Origin: an uncultured Erysipelotrichaceae bacterium | GTDB lineage: Bacteria > Bacillota_I > Bacilli_A > RF39 > UBA660 | DNA: 64,000 nt | Assembly: GCA_902779035.1 (NCBI GenBank) | Contig: CACZAH010000002.1 | Coordinates: 16,688 to 80,687, forward strand | Direction: 5' to 3' | Part shown: in pieces, positions 8,917-20,144 of the stretch | Layout: the number at the start of each line of letters is the position of its first letter | Numbering within the stretch: position 1 is the stretch's first letter | The notes under the pieces: model-generated | Seen by the model: the letters and a program-made list of their open reading frames with translations, nothing else | What the model was told of the DNA's origin: nothing | Databases searched by the model: none | Position numbers and translations under genes: made by a program

Positions 8917-10359
8917 TTATTTTTGATGTTTTAATTTATAAATTGATAATCCTGCACCAACAGCACCAATAAGAGTAATTACAACAAACATTGTAATATT
9001 TTTACCAGCTGTATCTGGAGTTTTTGAGTTATACATTACAACACTAGTTTCAACTTCACCAGAGTCTCCTACGTTAAACTTAATTACTTCATAACTTAAA
9101 TCATATCCTGAAGGTGCTTGAATCTCAATTAAAGTATATTCACCTTTATCAAGTTCAAGATAATGAGGTTCAGTACCTGATACCCATCTATCAATCTCTT
9201 CACCCTTAGAATTTTTAAGTACTAAAGTCGCTCCTGGTAGTTCTTTCTTAGTTGTAATGTCCTGCTTACTAATCTTTACTTTATACTTGTCTTTTAATGT
9301 GTTGTACATAGTAATCTCAGCAACTTTTCCATCGGCCTTTAACTCAAACTCAATAACTTCTTCAGTTAATTTATAACCGTCTGGAGCAATAATCTCAGTT
9401 AAAGAATATTTTCCTGGCTCTAAACCTTCAATATAATGAGCTTCATCACCAGATACCCACTTATCAACTTCATCACCATTTGAATTTTTAAGTACTAAAG
9501 TCGCTCCTGGAAGCTCTTTTTTATTTGTTAAATCTTGTTTACTAATTTTTAACTTAGTTATTTTCTTAGTAATATTTCCACTAATACTTTTATCACTAGT
9601 CTTATCTGACTTTTCAACTTCATTTATTGTACTAGCCTGATTACCGCTACCACAATCATATTTTTTGGCAATACTCATACTTTTATTTGCACTTACCTTA
9701 ACATTAACAGTAGTAGTTTCATCAACCTTAACAGATGTATTTGGCACTTTAACATAGAACTCATTTCCATTTTGTTCATATGTAGCACCTTCCGCACCAC
9801 TAACACTTATACTGTATTCATCACTACCAGATACAGTTACTTTATTAGAAATATAATTATCTCCATTTAAAGTAAAAGTTAACTCGTCTGTACTTAAACT
9901 AACACTATAATCCTTCTTAGCCGCATTATAAGCGTTAACAGCTGCATCATAATAAGATTGAATTGAATCAACAACTCTTATATTATTAACTTCATCGTGA
10001 GTTTCATAATCATATAAGAATTTATTAATAGCAAGTTCTGCATAATAATAATTTTGTGTACTAGGTGATGCATTATACTTATCAATTATTGCAGCAACTC
10101 CAGCAGCACCTGCATAACTCCATTGTTCACTACTTAATTTACAGCTTGTTCCAACACCATCAATGTTAAAAGTTGTACAGAAAACTACTCCGTTTCCATA
10201 CACTTTATGATAAAGTTCAATTCCTCCATCATAACTAATTACACTTTCCTTAGTAATACCATCAATACTATTTGGAAGTGCATTTACTCCACTTGTACCA
10301 ATTATTGATACAATTCCTATTACAAACACTAGTAATAGATACTTTATTTTGTTAAACAT
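8917..10359 (-). CDS. Secreted surface protein with two tandem SpaA/CnaB-type domains, an N-terminal domain shared with the 67-2007 protein, and the C-terminal tail TPDTAG + TM + KLKHQK
   Basis: Signal peptide; two repeats of KKELPGATLVLKNS.GxExDxWVSG.EPHY.E...YTL.EI.AP.GY; and a C-terminal sorting-signal-like architecture without LPXTG. Confidence 0.6.
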   Translation of the reverse strand: MFNKIKYLLLVFVIGIVSIIGTSGVNALPNSIDGITKESVISYDGGIELYHKVYGNGVVFCTTFNIDGVGTSCKLSSEQWSYAGAAGVAAIIDKYNASPSTQNYYYAELAINKFLYDYETHDEVNNIRVVDSIQSYYDAAVNAYNAAKKDYSVSLSTDELTFTLNGDNYISNKVTVSGSDEYSISVSGAEGATYEQNGNEFYVKVPNTSVKVDETTTVNVKVSANKSMSIAKKYDCGSGNQASTINEVEKSDKTSDKSISGNITKKITKLKISKQDLTNKKELPGATLVLKNSNGDEVDKWVSGDEAHYIEGLEPGKYSLTEIIAPDGYKLTEEVIEFELKADGKVAEITMYNTLKDKYKVKISKQDITTKKELPGATLVLKNSKGEEIDRWVSGTEPHYLELDKGEYTLIEIQAPSGYDLSYEVIKFNVGDSGEVETSVVMYNSKTPDTAGKNITMFVVITLIGAVGAGLSIYKLKHQK

Positions 10360-10439: not shown

Positions 10440-11321
10440 CTACTTTTTTAACACTTTTTTTAATTCCTTAACGTTTTTATCTTCCATCTTAGTTAAAGGG
10501 AGTCTAACTGAATCACTTTTAATAAGTCCAAGTTCATATAAAGCGCGTTTTACTGGTATTGGATTAACCTCACTAAATAATACTTTACTATATAAAATTG
10601 CCTTTTCATTTAATAAACTACTCTTCTTATAATCACCACTTAAATATGAATAAACTAAATTGTGCATATCTTTAGGAATTACATTTGCATCTACAGATAT
10701 TACACCAACTCCACCTAATGATAATACAGGTAATACTTGATCATCATTACCCGAGTATATATCCATATCTATATTATTCTTTCCTTTTAGATAAGCAAGT
10801 CGCGCTACCTGTGATATATTACCACTAGCTTCCTTAATACCTATAACATTCTTATTATTCTTTACAATATCTATTGCAGTATCAGGTTCTATATTTACAC
10901 CAGTTCTACTTGGTACATTATACATAAGAATTGGTATAGATACATTATCACTAATCATTTTATAATGCTCCTTCAAACCATTTTGTGTACATTTATTATA
11001 GTAAGGAGTAACAACTAGTAATCCATCTACCCCAATACTTTCTGCAGTTTGTGACAGTTTAACCGCACTCTTAGTACAATTAGAACCAGTTCCAGCAATA
11101 ACACATACCCTACCATCAACATACTCAACACACTTCTTAATACACTCAATCTGTTCATCATAAGATAAAGTTGATGCTTCCCCAGTAGTTCCACATACAA
11201 CAATAGCATCAGTACCATTACTAATCTCATAATCAATTAATTTATACATTGATTCATAATCAATCATATCATTATAAAAAGGCGTAACAAGTGCAACACC
11301 AGAACCCTTAAACAACGACAT
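10440..11321 (-). CDS. dapA: Dihydrodipicolinate synthase / N-acetylneuraminate lyase family (DapA-like) aldolase
   Basis: N-terminal GVALVTPF, a GTTGE motif, and overall DHDPS-family length and pattern. RBS GAGGTGGTG. Confidence 0.7.
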   Translation of the reverse strand: MSLFKGSGVALVTPFYNDMIDYESMYKLIDYEISNGTDAIVVCGTTGEASTLSYDEQIECIKKCVEYVDGRVCVIAGTGSNCTKSAVKLSQTAESIGVDGLLVVTPYYNKCTQNGLKEHYKMISDNVSIPILMYNVPSRTGVNIEPDTAIDIVKNNKNVIGIKEASGNISQVARLAYLKGKNNIDMDIYSGNDDQVLPVLSLGGVGVISVDANVIPKDMHNLVYSYLSGDYKKSSLLNEKAILYSKVLFSEVNPIPVKRALYELGLIKSDSVRLPLTKMEDKNVKELKKVLKK

Positions 11322-11367
11322 AACACCACCTCAATATATTTTATGAACAAAACTTTTTTATGCATCA

Positions 11368-11398
11368 AAAAACTTGTGTATTAATCTGTTACACAAGC
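11368..11398 (-). repeat. 31-bp perfect direct repeat copy A (AAAAACTTGTGTATTAATCTGTTACACAAGC). It contains the terminator hairpin CTTGTGTA-N9-TACACAAG downstream of yafQ
   Basis: Identical to 12111-12141. On the minus strand the hairpin is followed by TTTTGATGC. Confidence 0.8.
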
Positions 11399-11418
11399 TT
11401 TAATAACACATAATAATT

Positions 11419-11703
11419 CTAAAATACATCACTATGACTACCAGTATTAACTAATAATAAAATTAGTTCATTATCCAAATATTTATATATTAATAGCCAA
11501 TCAGGTTCAATATGACAATCACGACATCCTTTATATTTTTTGTCATCATATAATGTATGATCTCTATTCTTTATTTCTAATTGCTCTTTTATTGCCAATT
11601 TTTCTATAACTAAATCAAGCTTACTTAAATCTTTTCCATGCTTTAGCATCTTCTTTAAACTTTTCTTAAATTGATTAGAATAAATAACTTCATATTTAAT
11701 CAT
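11419..11703 (-). CDS. yafQ: Type II toxin YafQ (RelE/ParE superfamily mRNA interferase)
   Basis: KYKGCRDCHIEPDWLLIYKY...LLLVNTGSHSDVF aligns with E. coli YafQ (WKGYRDAHVEPDWILIYK...RTGTHAALF). Confidence 0.85.
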   Translation of the reverse strand: MIKYEVIYSNQFKKSLKKMLKHGKDLSKLDLVIEKLAIKEQLEIKNRDHTLYDDKKYKGCRDCHIEPDWLLIYKYLDNELILLLVNTGSHSDVF

Positions 11704-11704
11704 A

Positions 11705-11983
11705 TTACATAAGTTCCTTTTTAAGTTCTTCCCAATTGTTATTCTTTTTATATTCTTCTAGATGTGTCTCAATATAATCAAGTTCTTCTAATGCTGCTTT
11801 CATATCATTACTCATTTGTGGTTCTCTAACTTCAAAAGGAATACCACCTCTCATAATTACTTGTTTTATGGTCATATTAATTAAACCACTCATGGTAACT
11901 CCTAATCTTTGTAGTATTTCTGTTGCTTTTTCTTTATCTTTAGCATCTACTTGTACATTTATAGGAGCAGTTAAACTTGCCAT
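11705..11983 (-). CDS. dinJ: DinJ/RelB-family antitoxin (RHH)
   Basis: PINVQVDAKDKEKATEILQRLGVTMSGLINMTIKQV..GGIPFEVREP aligns with E. coli DinJ. The stop is 1 nt before the yafQ start. The start was chosen at the internal ATG (MASLTAP...). Confidence 0.8.
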   Translation of the reverse strand: MASLTAPINVQVDAKDKEKATEILQRLGVTMSGLINMTIKQVIMRGGIPFEVREPQMSNDMKAALEELDYIETHLEEYKKNNNWEELKKELM

Positions 11984-12110
11984 AATGCCATCTCCTTTCA
12001 ATCTAATAATAACATATTTTATATAATTTTTCAAGTATTTTTGTATAAAATCACTACATCTATAATAATATTATATGTATATTTTCAACTAATTATTCAA
12101 TAATTATAAT

Positions 12111-12141
12111 AAAAACTTGTGTATTAATCTGTTACACAAGC
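12111..12141 (-). repeat. 31-bp perfect direct repeat copy B (same hairpin), overlapping the 3' end of the LCP gene
   Basis: Identical to 11368-11398. On the minus strand the hairpin is followed by TTTTTATTAT. Confidence 0.8.
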
Positions 12142-13998
12142 CTTTATAGATGCATCATAGCTATAATTATCAGGACAACATACCATGCCTAATTTTTCAT
12201 AATGATAATTAGTTTCACACACAGGTTTCTTCTCATAATTTGCTTTAGTACATTTGCCATTATTCATTTTATAATCTTTAGGACATGTTAAGTCTACACT
12301 ACAAGTCTCTATTCCATCTTCATCTGTTTCAAGTTCACCTGTACAAATAGCCTCTTCAATATCAACATCATCTGTTTCTATTAAACACATGCCATCTTCC
12401 TGATTCTTACAAGCTGGATACATATAATCTTTAATATCTTTCTTTTGTTTTATTTCTTCTTTAGTAGTATTGGTCTCTTCTTTCTTTTCTTCTTTTGTTT
12501 CAGTCTCTTCTTTAGAACTATAATTATTAGTTGCAGTAGTAGCCGGTCCATCATATGTATATGTTGGCTCTAACTTCTTGCCATTAATAACATCATTAAT
12601 TAGATTATGTGCTTGTTCAATAGAACCTAATTTGGGTTCAAATACGAATAGTTTCATATTTCCACCACTATAAGTATAGTTATTACTATTAACTCCATCT
12701 AAGTTATATGTAGATATATTCCAAGTAGACATATCATTTAATTGCATCTTTAATAATGATGTAATCTTATTAGAACTCATATTAGTTTGGAATTTTCCTT
12801 TTAAAGAATTTAATAATGAATCATATTTAGTAATAATACTCTTACTACAAACTTTCTTGATTAATGCAGCTATTACTGCTTGTTGATCTTTACCACGTTG
12901 TATATCTCCTGCTTGAAAAGCCTTACGTTCTCTTGCAAAAGCTAAAGCCTGCTCTCCATTCATATTATTATTTCCCTCAGTAAAATGTACGCCATCTATT
13001 GATGTAAATGTATAATCAGAATATACTGTAATTCCACCTAACGCATTAACTATATCAATTAATGATGTAAAGTTAACTTTTACATAATAGTTAATCTCTA
13101 TATCAAGCAAATCTTCAATAGTTGCGATAGACATATCAACTCCATATATTCCAGCATGAGTTAATTTATCTTTAATACCTGTTGTACCGTGTAACTGGAC
13201 ATAATAATCTCTTGGAATACTTGTAAGTAATACTTGTTTAGTTTTAGGGTTAACTGTCGCAACTATATTTACATCACTTCTTGATACTGACGAAATCTCA
13301 CCATAAGTATCTATTCCAGTTATATAGATATTAAATGGTTTTCTTGTTACATTAACATCTTTTGCCTTAGTATTAGATTTAATCTTAATAACAAATTTAT
13401 AAATTACTTTTGTCTTATTATTAAATTCAGGGTCATCTTCATTAACCATTGATAATACTGAATCTTCTAACATAATAACTTTTTCTTCATTATTTAATAA
13501 TTTACTTGCCATCTCATTTGCATCATCATAATCTTTAAAATTAACATCAACGTTTTTAAGAACTTTCCTATTTGCATCTTTAGCTCCTTTAGAATTAGAG
13601 TAATATGCAACATTTAAATCCTTAATATCTTTTATTTTATTATATTCACTATCCTTTACAACTATTACTGAATACGTTTCTGTCTTATAGTCAGTTGGTC
13701 CTATTTTTGCAAGGAATCCTAGTGTATTTAAAATATAATGAGCAAAAAATGCCATAACTCCTAATACTACTATTGTTAAAAAAGCAAAGAATCCACGTAC
13801 TCCTTTTCTAGCTTTCTTACGCATTAGAAATATATCAAAGAATATATTGATGAATGCAATTCCACCTAGCACTAAATATAAATACTTATCAGGAAGCAAA
13901 TTAACTTTATATATAATATATGACATGAATAAACTTGCTAGAAATAGTATTAAAGCAAGTATTTTAAATATACTCAATCTTCGTTTTCTTCTTCTCAT
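12124..13998 (-). CDS. LytR-CpsA-Psr (LCP) family glycopolymer transferase with an N-terminal TM anchor and an unusual Cys-rich acidic C-terminal extension
   Basis: The LCP core LLTSIPRDYYVQL...GIYGVDMSIATIEDLLDIEINYYVKVNF..LIDIVNALGGITV is present. The C-terminal ~110 aa carries 14 Cys. Confidence 0.8.
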   Translation of the reverse strand: MRRRKRRLSIFKILALILFLASLFMSYIIYKVNLLPDKYLYLVLGGIAFINIFFDIFLMRKKARKGVRGFFAFLTIVVLGVMAFFAHYILNTLGFLAKIGPTDYKTETYSVIVVKDSEYNKIKDIKDLNVAYYSNSKGAKDANRKVLKNVDVNFKDYDDANEMASKLLNNEEKVIMLEDSVLSMVNEDDPEFNNKTKVIYKFVIKIKSNTKAKDVNVTRKPFNIYITGIDTYGEISSVSRSDVNIVATVNPKTKQVLLTSIPRDYYVQLHGTTGIKDKLTHAGIYGVDMSIATIEDLLDIEINYYVKVNFTSLIDIVNALGGITVYSDYTFTSIDGVHFTEGNNNMNGEQALAFARERKAFQAGDIQRGKDQQAVIAALIKKVCSKSIITKYDSLLNSLKGKFQTNMSSNKITSLLKMQLNDMSTWNISTYNLDGVNSNNYTYSGGNMKLFVFEPKLGSIEQAHNLINDVINGKKLEPTYTYDGPATTATNNYSSKEETETKEEKKEETNTTKEEIKQKKDIKDYMYPACKNQEDGMCLIETDDVDIEEAICTGELETDEDGIETCSVDLTCPKDYKMNNGKCTKANYEKKPVCETNYHYEKLGMVCCPDNYSYDASIKACVTD

Positions 13999-16166: not shown

Positions 16167-17198
16167 CTAACACTCCTTCTTTAACGCATGTAAATATTCA
16201 ATAGTAGTTTTCTTTTCTACTTCTTTATTCTTACTTGCTTTATATCTTTTATGATTACACTCATATCTTTTATAAATACCATATTTTTTCATTATATCTT
16301 CTATCTCTTTAAAACTCATAATACCTTCATCATTGTAACTTAAGAATATATATTTAAACTTTGCATTCTTAATTAAATCTTCAAACTCACGAGCTACCTC
16401 ATTCTTTTTATTATATTTAGATTTAAATTGTTCAATTCTAGTTCCGGCTTTACCACTAATCTCGGGATAATCAGAGTAAGCAATAGTTTCTAATATATGA
16501 TAATTAGTTGCATACTTTCTTGAATTATAAGGTGGATCTAAGTATAGTATATCACCTTTAATCTCTTTAATAAGTTCATTTGAGTCTTCAATATATACCT
16601 TACATTTACTATCTTTATTAATAACTATATCTATAGGTTTTAATTCCATAGTTTTCTCAGCAGACTTCTTCATACTCTTTAGGAATGCTTCATATACTGA
16701 TGCAGTATTGGCTACTTTATCAGCTGCCTCTAGTAAACAAGTAAGTAAATAATAATACTCATTCTTAGTAATAACTTCTTTCTTATACCACTTCTCTATA
16801 CAATCTCTAATAGAATCTATTTTAATTGCATTCTCGCTACTATAGTAGCACCTTTCATACTTACTACCAAGAGTACCTTCTAATGTATAATTATTGTATA
16901 TAAATCCATGATAATTATTAAGTTTATTTAAATAGATAAACGGATCACTTATACCAATTAATTTTAATCCAGAAAAACTAGGTATGCTATTATTCTCTAA
17001 GTAATGCTTATTCATTACATAACTATAAAACTGTGTATCATTTGCAAGAATATCAAAACCTAATGATTTAAACCTCTTACCAACTACACCAGTACCCGCA
17101 AATATATCACAAAATACTTTATTATCCTTACCAGCAAAATCAATAATAGATTCCTCTATAAAATCAATTATCGAATGTTTAGAACCTATATAATTCAT
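16167..17198 (-). CDS. Dam-family (MethyltransfD12) N6-adenine DNA methyltransferase; no cognate endonuclease nearby
   Basis: YIGSKHS (cf. Dam WAGGK), DIFAGTGVVG (the FxGxG AdoMet motif) and LYLDPPYN (DPPY catalytic motif), in Dam order. Confidence 0.8.
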   Translation of the reverse strand: MNYIGSKHSIIDFIEESIIDFAGKDNKVFCDIFAGTGVVGKRFKSLGFDILANDTQFYSYVMNKHYLENNSIPSFSGLKLIGISDPFIYLNKLNNYHGFIYNNYTLEGTLGSKYERCYYSSENAIKIDSIRDCIEKWYKKEVITKNEYYYLLTCLLEAADKVANTASVYEAFLKSMKKSAEKTMELKPIDIVINKDSKCKVYIEDSNELIKEIKGDILYLDPPYNSRKYATNYHILETIAYSDYPEISGKAGTRIEQFKSKYNKKNEVAREFEDLIKNAKFKYIFLSYNDEGIMSFKEIEDIMKKYGIYKRYECNHKRYKASKNKEVEKKTTIEYLHALKKEC

Positions 17199-17294: not shown

Positions 17295-18557
17295 TTACTC
17301 GAGTGCAGATTTTTTTAAGTTAATAACAGGTCTTATTCCTATACCATAATTAATTATACCATCACTTTTACTTATTCTTCCATCAGGATTCATTCTATAT
17401 ACATCATTTATATTATATTGGCTCATCGTCCAATAAGTAGTTCCCACATCATAAACCCACGCTGGAACATCAGAGTTTTTATTATCCGATTCTCCATATC
17501 CTAAATTATTTCTAAGCTCATCTACCGTTATCAATCGTATTTTATAATTCAAATTATCTTCAGCTAAATCCAAAGAATTGATTTTTTCACTTGCCCAAGA
17601 ATCTATAATATATTTAACATCACTTTGATTATAATCTGTAATGCAATTTGTTAATACATATGAATTGTTTACATAACCACATCTATCAGATGAATAATAT
17701 GCTGTCCCACCATATATTCCTTTGGCAAACACTTCTCCAGCTGATCTAAATGTATATTTATTAATATGGCCTACACCATATGTATTTACTTCCTCTATTT
17801 TAAACGGTTCTGCCTTTAATAAAGTTATATAGTCTTGATGTTTATCACTATCAGCTATTACATAATAATTTACATCATTATAAGTAACATAATCACCTAC
17901 TTTATACGGCCTATATACAATTTCTCCATATTTATAATTATTTTCACTATTATCCAATACCATTTCGTTATCGACTGAACACCTAGTTAAATATACTGTG
18001 CCATCATAGTTGATAGATACATCACAACTTACTTCTTTATCTAATGGTGGTAGTTCTAGAGTTGTATAATCACTAGGGTATTCATTATGTTCATCATGAT
18101 ATTTTTTTAAAGCATCTTCTAAATTCTTACCATATGTATCCACATATTCTTGATTTGTCATTTTAAGTATTCCATAATGGTAATAGCCATCTATTTCTTT
18201 ATCATCTTTTACTAATTTACCATTTACCTTACATTCTGACAAGTATATTGAATAATCAGGATTAATTCTACTTGTTTTACATTCTACTTTATTACCTTTA
18301 TATTCTATTTCTAGTTTATCAAAATTATCAGGGTAGGCTAGATGTACTAACTGATAATCAGCCATTGCATATTCTACCGCTCTACCATATCCATCTACAC
18401 TTCTTTTATTTGCAACATCTTTTACTCTTCTAATTGTATTTAAAAGTAATGGTGCGACTATTAATGATATTACTGCAAGAATTACTAGGACTGCCATTAA
18501 TTCAATGAGTGTAAAAGCATTAATTTTCTTTTTTCTTACCTTTTTTATTCTACTCAT
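17295..18557 (-). CDS. Large (420-aa) protein with a type IV prepilin-like N-terminus (class III signal peptide; prepilin peptidase / N-methylation site)
   Basis: MSRIKKVRKKKINA|FTLIELMAVLVILAVISLIVAPLL is a basic leader followed by FTLIELM and a hydrophobic helix. The C-terminal 370 aa has no recognisable motif. The start was chosen at the second ATG, which has an RBS. Confidence 0.6.
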   Translation of the reverse strand: MSRIKKVRKKKINAFTLIELMAVLVILAVISLIVAPLLLNTIRRVKDVANKRSVDGYGRAVEYAMADYQLVHLAYPDNFDKLEIEYKGNKVECKTSRINPDYSIYLSECKVNGKLVKDDKEIDGYYHYGILKMTNQEYVDTYGKNLEDALKKYHDEHNEYPSDYTTLELPPLDKEVSCDVSINYDGTVYLTRCSVDNEMVLDNSENNYKYGEIVYRPYKVGDYVTYNDVNYYVIADSDKHQDYITLLKAEPFKIEEVNTYGVGHINKYTFRSAGEVFAKGIYGGTAYYSSDRCGYVNNSYVLTNCITDYNQSDVKYIIDSWASEKINSLDLAEDNLNYKIRLITVDELRNNLGYGESDNKNSDVPAWVYDVGTTYWTMSQYNINDVYRMNPDGRISKSDGIINYGIGIRPVINLKKSALE

Positions 18558-18641
18558 AATGCATCTACCTTTCATTGATATTATATCATAAAAAATCGTA
18601 TTTAGATATTTTTTTCTTATATTTTTTATTATGATGAGAAA

Positions 18642-19097
18642 ATGATGTTAGGCGATATGATGATTGCTGAACGTTTAAAAGATATTAGAATAGAAAATGA
18701 TTTAACACAAACTCAAATAGCTAAAATACTTAATACTACTCAAAATAGTTATAACAGATGGGAGAATAATGTTGAATTAATTAGTTTAAAGAAATTAACT
18801 AGGGTGTGCAACTACTTTAATACAAGTATGGATTACTTAGTTGGTATAACCCGAAATAATATAGGTAATGGCAAACACGATTTTAATTATAGTATTGTTG
18901 GAAATAATATTAAAATTTTTAGAAAAGATAATAAATTAAGCCAGAAAGATCTAGCAACTCTTCTTAATACATCACAATCTACAATAAGTGCTTATGAAGC
19001 AGGTAAAACTATAATTCTCACTGCATTTGCATTAGAAATAGTTAAGAAATATAACATCTCTTTAGATTGGTTATTTGGAAGAAAAGAAAAAAGTTAA
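18642..19097 (+). CDS. XRE-family transcriptional regulator with two tandem HTH_XRE domains
   Basis: Two copies of the pattern L..R..LTQ..IA..L....S.Y..WE.G... (residues 8-65 and 85-145). Confidence 0.7.
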   Translation: MMLGDMMIAERLKDIRIENDLTQTQIAKILNTTQNSYNRWENNVELISLKKLTRVCNYFNTSMDYLVGITRNNIGNGKHDFNYSIVGNNIKIFRKDNKLSQKDLATLLNTSQSTISAYEAGKTIILTAFALEIVKKYNISLDWLFGRKEKS

Positions 19098-19117: not shown

Positions 19118-20144
19118 CTACATATGTTCTTTTTTACTAAACTCAATTAATTCATCAAAATCAGATAAATAGTTTTGATCTTGTCTTATTCGATATTTTT
19201 CATATTCAGATAACGCAAGTGTATCGGCTATTTCTCTTTTTATCTTTTCATTATCTTTTAAAATATTGTACTCATTCAGTTTTAAAAACAATTCTAATTT
19301 TTCTTTCCATTCCTTCATCGAAATAATATGACCTAATTTAACTTGTCTTTCAGCATAATCCAAATACATTGATACTAAATTATTCAATTCAGTTATTTCT
19401 TCTTTATATAAGTAGTTTTTAGCAACAACTACATCACTTTCTAATATTTTACCTTTAGGTGCATTCTTCCAAGTTTGCAAACCCATATTATCTTTTTTTT
19501 TGAATCTACTCTATTATAAATATTTCAGGAGCATTCATTCCAGTTATAGCAAAATAAAGCTTATTCTGTACATTTTTATAAAACTCTATAGTCGTTTCAC
19601 TATTTTTATCATAGTCATAGCTACATTCTTTATATATGTCGGTAATTTTTTGATAGAATCTTCTTTCACTTGCTCTTATTTCTTTTATTTTTAATAGCAA
19701 TTCATCAAAATAGTCTTTACCAAATTTTGGACCATTTTTTAACAGTTCAGAATTTACTACAAAACCTTTTTTTATATACTCCTTTAATGTATTAGTTGTC
19801 CAAATTCTAAACTGTGTAGCTTCAAAACTATTAACTCTATAGCCAACTGCGATTATCGCATCTAAACTATAAAAACTAGTATTATACTTTTTTCCATCAT
19901 TAGCAGTTATTCGAATTTTTCGAATAACTGAATCTTCCTCTAATTCTCCACTATTAAATATCTCTTTTAAATGATAGTTTATAGTATTAACCTTAACTGA
20001 AAATAATTCAGCCATAGTTTTTTGAGTTAGCCAAAAATCTTCACTATCATATAGAACTTCTATGATTTTACTTCCTGTTTCATTTTGATATAAAACTATA
20101 CTATTTAAATTAGAAACTTTATTCATATCATACACCTCAAACAT
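19118..20144 (-). pseudogene. RhuM-family (Virulence_RhuM) gene split into two ORFs (19506-20144 and 19118-19486) by a frameshift in an A9/T9 homopolymer tract at 19493-19501
   Basis: The N-terminal ORF carries YSLDAIIAVGYRVNSFEATQFRIWTTNTLKEYI, the hallmark RhuM motif. The adjacent out-of-frame ORF reads like the RhuM C-terminal region. The junction coincides with a 9-nt homopolymer. Confidence 0.6.

Follow-up and report, generated by a model that had tools for sequence, protein, structure and literature searches.

A dinJ-yafQ toxin-antitoxin operon between two copies of a terminator-like 31-bp repeat in an uncultured Erysipelotrichaceae bacterium

The stretch of DNA analyzed here (the window) comprises 64,000 nucleotides of contig CACZAH010000002.1 from an uncultured Erysipelotrichaceae bacterium, and carries a dinJ-yafQ toxin-antitoxin (TA) operon that lies between two identical copies of a 31-bp, hairpin-forming direct repeat. 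The whole locus is read from the minus strand. Its upstream neighbor encodes a 624-aa protein of the LytR-CpsA-Psr (LCP) family (12124..13998; Pfam LytR_cpsA_psr, E = 1.8e-42) and is the target gene of the insertion proposed below; repeat copy 2 (12111..12141) takes in the last five codons and the stop of this gene and a T5 run. A 127-nt operon leader (11984..12110) follows, with the left junction of the insertion at 12110/12111. The antitoxin gene dinJ (11705..11983, 92 aa, RelB/DinJ family) and the toxin gene yafQ (11419..11703, 94 aa, RelE/ParE superfamily) are followed by a 20-nt linker (11399..11418), which runs from the yafQ stop codon to repeat copy 1 on the dapA side (11368..11398, T6 run). 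The spacer between the predicted terminator and dapA (GATGCATAAAAAAG...GAGGTGG, 11322..11367) forms the right flank of the insertion and aligns with the empty sites of two related species described below, and dapA itself (10440..11321), encoding 4-hydroxy-tetrahydrodipicolinate synthase, is identified by Pfam DHDPS (E = 1.9e-87).

The identification of the two small genes as a DinJ/YafQ pair, made in the original prediction from the sequence alone, was borne out by profile and structure database matches with conserved motifs. The toxin scored 97.8 bits against PF15738 YafQ_toxin (E = 4.6e-28; curated cut-off 30) and the antitoxin 47.6 bits against PF04221 RelB (E = 1.6e-12; cut-off 22.4). Among PDB chains, the toxin matched YafQ with E-values in the range 1e-14 to 1e-12 (9LEW_B, E = 9e-15; E. 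coli 4ML0_B, E = 6e-14), and the antitoxin matched DinJ (9LEW_A, E = 1e-6; 4Q2U_A, E = 9e-6). E. coli YafQ has conserved catalytic His/His/Asp/His residues and a C-terminal Phe. In the alignment, the motifs that hold the catalytic residues (DH, RDxHxEPDW and TGxH...F) are present in the window toxin, where the pairs aligned to 4ML0_B are kDHpl/rDHtl, RDaHvEPDW/RDcHiEPDW and TGtHaalF/TGsHsdvF. The pair resembles E. coli DinJ-YafQ (PDB 4ML0, 4Q2U, 4MMG) in having the antitoxin gene first, a 1-nt gap between the dinJ stop codon and the yafQ ATG, a RelB-family antitoxin and the YafQ motifs, and differs in the distance between the proteins (E about 1e-14 for YafQ and 1e-5 for DinJ) and in its low-GC gut Bacilli host. 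By these homologies, it is predicted to be a type II DinJ/YafQ toxin-antitoxin module and an ordinary member of its family.

The 712 bp between the repeat copies hold only the leader, dinJ and yafQ, with intact open reading frames. The leader contains a sigma-70-like promoter (-35 TTGAAA at 12034-12029, a 17-nt spacer and a TG-extended -10 TATTAT at 12011-12006) that scored 10/12 with the TG in a promoter scan, together with a ribosome-binding site, AGGAGA. The promoter core is kept in the distant TA homologs of loci L104 and L105 (labels L001-L120 denote the 120 loci fetched for comparison). The likely dinJ start is the ATG at 11983, not the TTG at 12034, and independent assemblies also call a 92-aa dinJ product. 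Since a promoter is present and no terminator-like hairpin was found between yafQ and copy 1, the inserted DNA appears to be a complete operon without a terminator of its own.

The flanking repeat, AAAAACTTGTGTATTAATCTGTTACACAAGC, is an exact 31-mer with copies at 11368-11398 and 12111-12141, as originally described, and no third copy was found in the window with up to 3 mismatches allowed. The start-to-start spacing of the copies is 743 nt and the unique DNA between them (11399-12110) 712 nt. Zero chance matches are expected (100 shuffles), and the longest common substring of shuffled flanks reached at most 12-15 nt, compared with the 31 nt observed. The copies remain alike over 38 nt at 95% identity (11368-11405 versus 12111-12148, two mismatches). 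The 7-nt extension beside copy 1 (11399-11405), the last 7 nt of the linker, reads in frame as the codons for I and K, ATT AAA as compared with ATA AAG in LCP, and both mismatches are synonymous third-position differences. Past 38 nt, repeat homology into the linker and toward the LCP 3' end gave p about 0.03-0.13. Aside from a domain repeat inside the SpaA-domain gene, this is the sole long near-exact direct repeat in the 64 kb. That domain repeat spans 130 nt at 82% identity (9154-9283 and 9427-9556) and corresponds to two prealbumin-like domains.

In minus-strand RNA, each repeat copy folds into a hairpin with arms CUUGUGUA and UACACAAG around a 9-nt loop (arms at 11373-11380 and 11390-11397 in copy 1, and at 12116-12123 and 12133-12140 in copy 2), followed by U6 after copy 1 and U5 after copy 2. 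The stem of 8 bp is extendable to 12 pairs through the flanking A and U tracts. In a 56-nt context, the predicted fold of copy 1 has a free energy of -16.8 kcal/mol (z = -3.2) and that of copy 2 -14.6 kcal/mol (z = -5.0). A simple terminator scan flagged neither hairpin, probably because the 9-nt loop exceeds the scan maximum of 8 nt, and the hairpins were judged by folding energies and conservation in place of that scan. The word terminator is used here in a predictive sense, from the shape, position and conservation of the hairpin. The reading of each copy as a hairpin with a minus-strand T-run, one closing LCP and the other yafQ, was upheld, and a further detail emerged at the LCP end. The last 18 nt of copy 2 correspond to the end of LCP, five codons with the stop (GCT TGT GTA ACA GAT TAA, 12141-12124, ACVTD*), and since copy 2 contains these codons, the 5' arm of the hairpin is coding sequence. 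An 8-mer, TGATGCAT on the minus strand, also flanks the native hairpin, at 11360-11367 just past the T-run and at 12157-12164 inside the LCP 3' end. It occurs 7 times in the window, and the flanking pair may have arisen by chance or be a remnant of an earlier event. At the empty site of L009, a 7-nt TGATGCA likewise flanks the hairpin on each side.

The nearest genome representatives of the host lineage, uncultured gut Bacilli, are metagenome-assembled genomes labeled Bacillales or Erysipelotrichaceae, and a search of the GTDB representative genomes with the LCP protein gave a best match of 81% and did not recover the species of the window itself. In the window, LCP is preceded by an HD phosphohydrolase gene (15192-14062, minus strand) and dapA is followed by the gene for a SpaA-domain surface protein (10359-8917, minus strand). 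The two nearest species in the genome collection, L008 and L009 (LCP protein 80-81% identical), have the gene order HD-LCP-dapA-SpaA with a single hairpin and no TA pair. Their LCP-dapA spacer is 63 nt long, compared with 59 nt in the window after subtraction of 743 nt. In L009, the hairpin AAAGCTTGTGTAGCAGATTAATGCACAAGTTTTTTT is preceded by a homolog of the LCP-side flank of copy 2 and followed by GATGCATAAAT..., a homolog of the flank of window copy 1. The dapA-side flank of the empty sites, TGATGCATAAA..., corresponds to the flank of copy 1 in L008, L009 and two JGI metagenome contigs, L088 and L090, which show the same empty arrangement with one hairpin. In L008, L009 and L088, dapA follows LCP directly, and the more distant L010 also has a single hairpin and no TA pair, with a neighbor gene other than dapA.

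Many relatives have LCP orthologs that end in a hairpin and T-run overlapping or abutting the stop codon, and the hairpin is kept across LCP alleles with wobble changes only. Given the one hairpin at empty sites and the hairpin-ended LCP orthologs, we take the repeat unit to be the native, predicted terminator of LCP. Copy 1 recreates the context of hairpin, T-run and GATGCAT upstream of dapA. The comparison suggested in the original prediction, with relatives in which LCP lies directly before dapA with a single hairpin, thus recovered such relatives with both outer flanks matching. Because these single-hairpin relatives represent the empty site, an insertion with a target duplication of about 31-38 bp at the LCP terminator is supported by the comparison. 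The proposed insertion at a terminator with duplication of that terminator agrees with the empty-site alignment, the unique insert being 712 nt.

A chance repeat, a generic multi-copy terminator or an assembly artefact could each mimic such a structure. The genome is AT-rich (28% GC), where short repeats are common, and one Logan contig (L002) stops precisely at the repeat, a break that assembly at k = 31 would be expected to make in a 31-nt repeat. Against this stand the shuffling results given above, with zero matches expected and at most 15 nt shared by shuffled flanks, and the distribution of the repeat. A degenerate 26-nt version of the hairpin had no match in IMG/VR and was found in JGI metagenomes at three places, all of them the LCP/dapA locus. 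Since the window has no more than two copies and all database matches fall at this locus, the repeat is not the generic terminator scattered over many loci that the original prediction had named as the finding that would count against it. Furthermore, different pipelines yielded the two-copy structure in at least seven independent assemblies (L001/L006, L004, L007, L089, L100 and L101), which argues that it is not an assembly artefact. We regard these trivial explanations as effectively refuted.

The structure resembles a known class of events, insertion with long target duplication (Nobusato et al., 2000, Gene 259:99; Furuta, Abe and Kobayashi, 2010, NAR 38:2428, PMC2853133), described for restriction-modification units that lack mobility genes and are flanked by genome-unique repeats of more than 30 bp with a single copy at the empty site of a relative (PMC2853133). 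Such repeats often span the stop codon of a neighboring gene and keep it intact, as in the example of 46-bp repeats overlapping 15 bp of a gene 3' end (PMC2853133). The criteria of Furuta et al. (2010) are repeats of more than 30 bp, an insert of less than 20 kb, the absence of a mobility gene and a repeat that is not multi-copy (PMC2853133). The window repeats align to a single empty-site copy with both outer flanks aligned (in sister species of about 80% identity), the insert is 712 bp long and carries no mobility gene, and the 31-mer occurs only at this locus (window, IMG/VR and JGI). Its length, 31 bp exact and 38 bp at 95%, lies above 30 bp as a borderline case. The locus differs from the described cases in that the repeat is a terminator hairpin, the empty site is found in sister species and an alternative allele without a second copy exists. 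Literature searches found no toxin-antitoxin example of this class, the described cases being restriction-modification units.

To describe variation at the locus, every hairpin in the 120 fetched loci was classed by its flanks. The junction between LCP and leader was found at 16 loci with five hairpin alleles, and the left junction was identical in 16/16 of them. The junction between yafQ and dapA was found at nine loci with a single allele, CTTGTGTAACAGATTAATACACAAG, the empty junction between LCP and dapA at three loci and as a variant in L008, and a junction between yafQ and leader at one locus, L094, a k = 31 assembly. In every TA-bearing locus, the hairpin and its TTTTT directly adjoin the leader, whose identity among these loci is 90-100%. 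The yafQ product and the dapA protein of L004 are identical to those of the window, and L100, L101 and L089 are close to it. In these four loci, the LCP-proximal copy differs by 2 nt from the constant downstream copy, and the perfect identity of the two copies is therefore particular to the allele combination of the window strain.

A second arrangement of the locus, here type B, was found in L091-L093, L097, L102, L103, L113 and L118-L120. Type B has the same left junction and leader, a yafQ 87-91% identical to that of the window at the nucleotide level, and no hairpin copy downstream of yafQ. Its yafQ is followed by unrelated sequence (about 125 nt), then by a strong promoter with a gene for a prepilin-like protein of 313-316 aa, and by a structured region of about 230 nt. 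At the right end, ...GGATAATTATT is directly followed by TGATGCATAAAAG and then dapA, and the locus rejoins the native sequence at the empty-site nucleotide. TA pairs with only one repeat copy, which the original prediction had set against its reading, do therefore occur in type B; type A loci carry two copies.

The type B right end was also considered as a decayed remnant of the LCP 3' end, for which the 10-mer GATAATTATT was seemingly significant (p about 0.005) and under which the ancestral state would have been a larger insertion flanked by repeats. This reading was rejected: in L116 and L117, ...TTTTGTGGATAA is the end of an independent prepilin-like cassette that follows ackA. There, the cassette of promoter, gene and 3' region lies downstream of the ackA terminator at 87-88% identity, and homology stops exactly at ...GTGGATAA. 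On this sequence comparison, the cassette (L091:1560-2900, L118:4306-5726 and L116:4430-5700) is an independent unit, with a TTGACA-17-TATTAT promoter and a protein bearing an N_methyl motif and a weak CBM_5_12 match.

The prepilin-like protein family is large and variable, with 1,733 homologs at E <= 1e-30, mostly 70-87% identical. The relatively GC-rich 3' region of the gene (L091:2666-2890, L118:5452-5700 and L116:5443-5660) contains two hairpins, of which one (GTGAAGGACTTACG...CGTAAGTCCTTCAC) is perfect over 14 bp and the other is GGCTGTCAGAAATGGCAGCC. This region is 88-91% conserved between loci, compared with 83-87% for the prepilin-like gene at the nucleotide level, and is absent from the window. 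It has no Rfam match, and no known RNA family was detected in window 9.5-14.5 kb or in L091, L009 and L089, which were scanned in full, with the structured type B spacer before dapA included, save for the tRNAs of L009. The window encodes a 426-aa prepilin-like protein elsewhere (17295-18575, minus strand), which has an N_methyl motif, is a paralog (33-46% identity) of the type B cargo and contains an internal duplication of the part homologous to cargo residues 47-130. Two loci, L096 (966-4959) and L097 (1039-2769), have insertion sequence (IS) transposase genes (DDE_Tnp_1 and Transposase_mut) beyond the promoter region of the type B yafQ, with DDE_Tnp_1 downstream of yafQ in place of the type B cargo, suggesting that the locus keeps acquiring insertions.

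Comparison of the window with the complete type B locus L118 gave nucleotide identities of 92% for HD, 88-91% for LCP, 93% for the leader, 96% for dinJ, 91% for yafQ, 90% for dapA and 90% for sortase. In this lineage, about 10% diverged from the window, the operon and the genes beside it have accumulated similar amounts of change. The insertion is therefore old, and the TA locus would have been inherited or exchanged by ordinary recombination. Comparison with L091 gave a mosaic (LCP 94-97%, leader 99%, dinJ 97%, yafQ 87-88%, dapA 87% and SpaA 77%). In L114 (605-904), yafQ is a hybrid with a B-like 5' half, an A-like 3' half and a type A linker, and the LCP end of this locus is 93% identical to that of the empty-site species L009 and only 81-85% identical to those of the other TA-bearing lineages compared. 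These alignments give evidence of recombination both between lineages and within the toxin gene. Across lineages (L001-L120), dinJ is 95-100% identical at the nucleotide level, compared with 80-90% for flanking core genes and 87-91% for yafQ; this suggests that the antitoxin and leader swept or introgressed recently, or that they are under unusual constraint.

Our preferred explanation, which we hold with moderate confidence, is a single insertion of a terminator-less dinJ-yafQ operon at the LCP terminator with target duplication, followed by vertical inheritance and exchange and by a replacement in type B. Several observations weigh against it. The 25-nt hairpin of copy 1 is invariant in 9/9 loci that carry it and the LCP-proximal copy has five alleles in 16, and an invariant downstream copy beside a variable upstream copy would also fit an arrival of the downstream copy with incoming DNA. 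Type B has the TA pair and the same junctions without a second hairpin, and the duplication need not therefore date from the insertion event itself. The A and B forms of yafQ are equidistant from the outgroups L104 and L105, which gives no polarity of type A versus type B. L114 and L115 pair the TA operon with an LCP end 93% like that of the empty-site species, so that the TA-bearing loci are not a clean single clade. The empty-site comparators are other species at about 80% identity, not conspecific strains, and their empty sites could in principle be secondary precise deletions between repeats. Finally, 31 bp barely passes the 30-bp threshold that separates insertions with long target duplication from att-type repeats (PMC2853133).

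The main alternative is a two-step route, in which the TA operon inserted after the LCP terminator without duplication, as seen in type B, and the second hairpin came later with foreign DNA. For example, DNA from a second strain may have displaced the cargo downstream of yafQ, held at one end through homology in dapA and joined illegitimately right behind yafQ at the other, which would lie within the donor LCP 3' end (homology-facilitated illegitimate recombination); ectopic gene conversion is a further possible route. Type B, with its one hairpin and identical outer junctions, occurs in several lineages whose LCP is 84-98% identical to that of the window. The constant downstream copy, 2 nt off the LCP-proximal copy in L004, L089, L100 and L101, has the look of a donor fragment, the synonymous difference between ATT AAA and ATA AAG is of the kind found between two LCP alleles, and recombination at the locus is frequent. 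However, this route needs two rare events and not one, an LCP allele with the ATT codon was not found among the loci examined, and the outgroup comparison gives no polarity that would favor it. The type B cargo also occurs after ackA (L116/L117), which makes an order of TA operon first and pilin cassette later at least as natural. We consider the two-step route unlikely, if a serious competitor.

It could also be argued that the TA operon is ancestral and that the empty sites of L008 and L009 arose by precise deletion between the 31-38 bp repeats. Direct repeats spaced by 743 bp would lend themselves to such a deletion, and the presence of the TA pair in L114 and L115 shows that it varies near the L009 lineage. 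On the other hand, the more distant L010 has a single hairpin and no TA pair (although dapA is not the neighbor there), and the loss of an active addiction module would be counter-selected. Such a deletion would alter only the timing and not the nature of the structure, as an earlier insertion with duplication is still required. We rate this ancestral-presence scenario as highly improbable.

The original prediction saw in the locus a compact mobile-cassette signature with no transposase or integrase. No integrase, transposase or other recombinase was found in window 8.9-22.9 kb, nor within 6 kb on either side in L001/L006, which bears out the second half of that statement for the genes scanned (sortase, C39 peptidase, SpaA, dapA, LCP, HD, SLT, D12 methyltransferase, prepilin-like, an Xre-type regulator, a split RhuM gene, an S1-domain protein and two open reading frames without a Pfam match). 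As for the first half, the insertion at a duplicated terminator stands and mobility of the unit does not follow from the evidence. Every YafQ homolog of at least 86% identity sits at the LCP/dapA locus, the next relatives (about 70-76% identity) lie in unrelated contexts, and TA divergence tracks that of the flanking genes. The 774-bp unit had no phage match and only trivial matches to plasmids, and the hairpin had 0 matches in IMG/VR. The distant homologous TA pairs of L104 and L105 have no flanking repeats beyond chance, so that the duplication is not a property of this TA family. An autonomous mobile cassette is rather unlikely. An IS element, transposon or miniature inverted-repeat transposable element was rejected: no terminal inverted repeat was reported at the insert ends, the duplication of 31-38 bp exceeds the 2-14 bp typical of such elements, no transposase is present and only a single locus is occupied.

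The RhuM-family gene is split (19118-20144, minus strand) into 19506-20144, which matches profile positions 1-139, and 19118-19486, which matches positions 150-249, and is probably a pseudogene. A double helix-turn-helix Xre-type regulator gene (18642-19097, plus strand) adjoins it. A D12 (Dam-like) adenine methyltransferase gene (16167-17198) is apparently an orphan, with no adjacent restriction gene seen. Together, the RhuM gene, the Xre regulator and the D12 methyltransferase may be the remains of an accessory or defense islet.

A non-autonomous form of mobility was considered separately. Here, the hairpin would be an attachment (att) site for a recombinase encoded elsewhere, and the unit of leader, dinJ, yafQ, linker and hairpin would excise as a circle, integrate at hairpin sites and form arrays, in analogy to integron cassettes, Acinetobacter dif modules or integrase-less elements that the recombinase of another element mobilizes in cis. 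The direct repeats include and restore the 3' end of the target gene, a classical att geometry; the left junction is the same in every lineage; and the right junctions of types A and B both fall at the empty-site nucleotide. In addition, contig L094 (1-1014, Logan ERR3275114, k = 31) reads from a type A yafQ 3' end through linker, hairpin and TTTTT into leader, dinJ and a type B yafQ, exactly the predicted tandem or circular junction.

This junction may represent tandem TA units or a circle, and may equally be a chimeric path through a shared 31-mer. Type A and L091-like type B strains share exactly one 31-mer at the junction point, and the contig ends fall where the alleles diverge; with assembly at k = 31, a chimeric path is realistic for L094. 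The contig is only 1,014 nt long, the repeat is exactly 31 nt and the junction is found in 1/120 loci: no second junction between yafQ and leader was found among the 120, and L113-L115 and L118-L120 have LCP upstream. Other evidence also speaks against a site-specific cassette. The unit turned up at no second locus and was not recovered from IMG/VR, plasmid or phage sequences; the flanking genes scanned included no recombinase gene; the divergence of the TA genes follows that of their neighbors; and high inter-lineage identity runs into LCP, past the hairpin (L093). The arms of 8 nt, loop of 9 nt and overall length of 25 nt fit neither attC nor Xer sites, and the unit has its own promoter. We therefore consider site-specific mobilization decidedly unlikely.

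The locus can also be compared with the systems that this model recalls. TA cassettes are common in chromosomal integrons, and a hairpin-forming site that bounds a small cassette is a shared feature. However, integron attC sites are 57-141 bp long with R''/L''/L'/R' boxes and a GTTRRRY core, and their cassettes are promoterless. An integron cassette was rejected for the window: its hairpin spans 25 nt, the motif closest to GTTRRRY is GTTACAC, which does not fit, the operon has its own promoter, and neither an integron integrase nor attI was found nearby. Streptococcus thermophilus cis-mobilizable elements are integrase-less, have att direct repeats with the target gene 3' end and undergo tandem accretion; for the window, neither an integrase nor a matching integrating element was found, and the unit was not detected at other places. 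The dif sites are 28-bp XerC/XerD sites (11-6-11) that alternate in orientation on plasmids, whereas the chromosomal site of the window, which doubles as stop codon and terminator, is a 25-nt hairpin (8-9-8) with both copies in direct orientation. The Acinetobacter plasmid dif modules are small units, including toxin-antitoxin pairs, with short partly palindromic sites and no recombinase of their own (PMC6449649, PMC6160057). A broader version of the idea, that stop-overlapping terminator hairpins are recombination sites capturing, stacking and exchanging small promoter-bearing units (the TA operon and possibly the prepilin-like cassette), is a speculation that we consider very unlikely. If true, it would mean an integron-like or dif-module-like system at ordinary terminators in reduced-genome gut Bacilli, with the L094 junction as its footprint.

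Under the preferred reading of a single insertion with target duplication, a promoter-bearing dinJ-yafQ operon of about 705-712 bp, without its own terminator, would have inserted once, in uncultured gut Bacilli ancestral to the lineages of the window and of L118. It would have entered at the intrinsic terminator of LCP, whose 5' arm is made of the last LCP codons, and a target of about 31-38 bp, consisting of the LCP end, the hairpin and part of the T-run, would have been duplicated. LCP would thereby keep its stop codon and terminator, the upstream copy could shield the TA promoter from read-through, and the second copy would end the TA transcript and restore the hairpin, T-run and GATGCAT before dapA. 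Presumably as in E. coli DinJ-YafQ, DinJ would bind and neutralize YafQ and repress the operon promoter, and free YafQ would act as a ribosome-dependent mRNA endonuclease. Vertical inheritance and homologous recombination between related lineages would then have produced the hybrid yafQ alleles and the several LCP-end alleles beside a constant downstream copy, and in type B lineages the downstream copy would later have been replaced by the prepilin-like gene cassette. Candidate mechanisms for the duplication are widely staggered breaks beside the palindrome with fill-in, or a single crossover with a circle or fragment bearing the LCP end.

The locus is a tidy but ordinary case of a known mechanism class, and the result is one at the level of annotation. 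Entry of a TA operon into intergenic DNA without mobility genes is rarely documented at nucleotide resolution, and this locus combines a natural allele series with both states of the site, empty and occupied with a 31-38 bp duplication. Most notable is the nature of the duplicated target, a predicted terminator with a coding 5' arm. Because of this, one event would have kept the LCP end, given the operon a terminator and left the 5' context of dapA intact, and an insertion of this kind may be almost neutral and therefore readily retained. On this reading, the locus would extend insertion with long target duplication from restriction-modification units to a toxin-antitoxin module, which fits the view that different addiction modules colonize genomes in similar ways.

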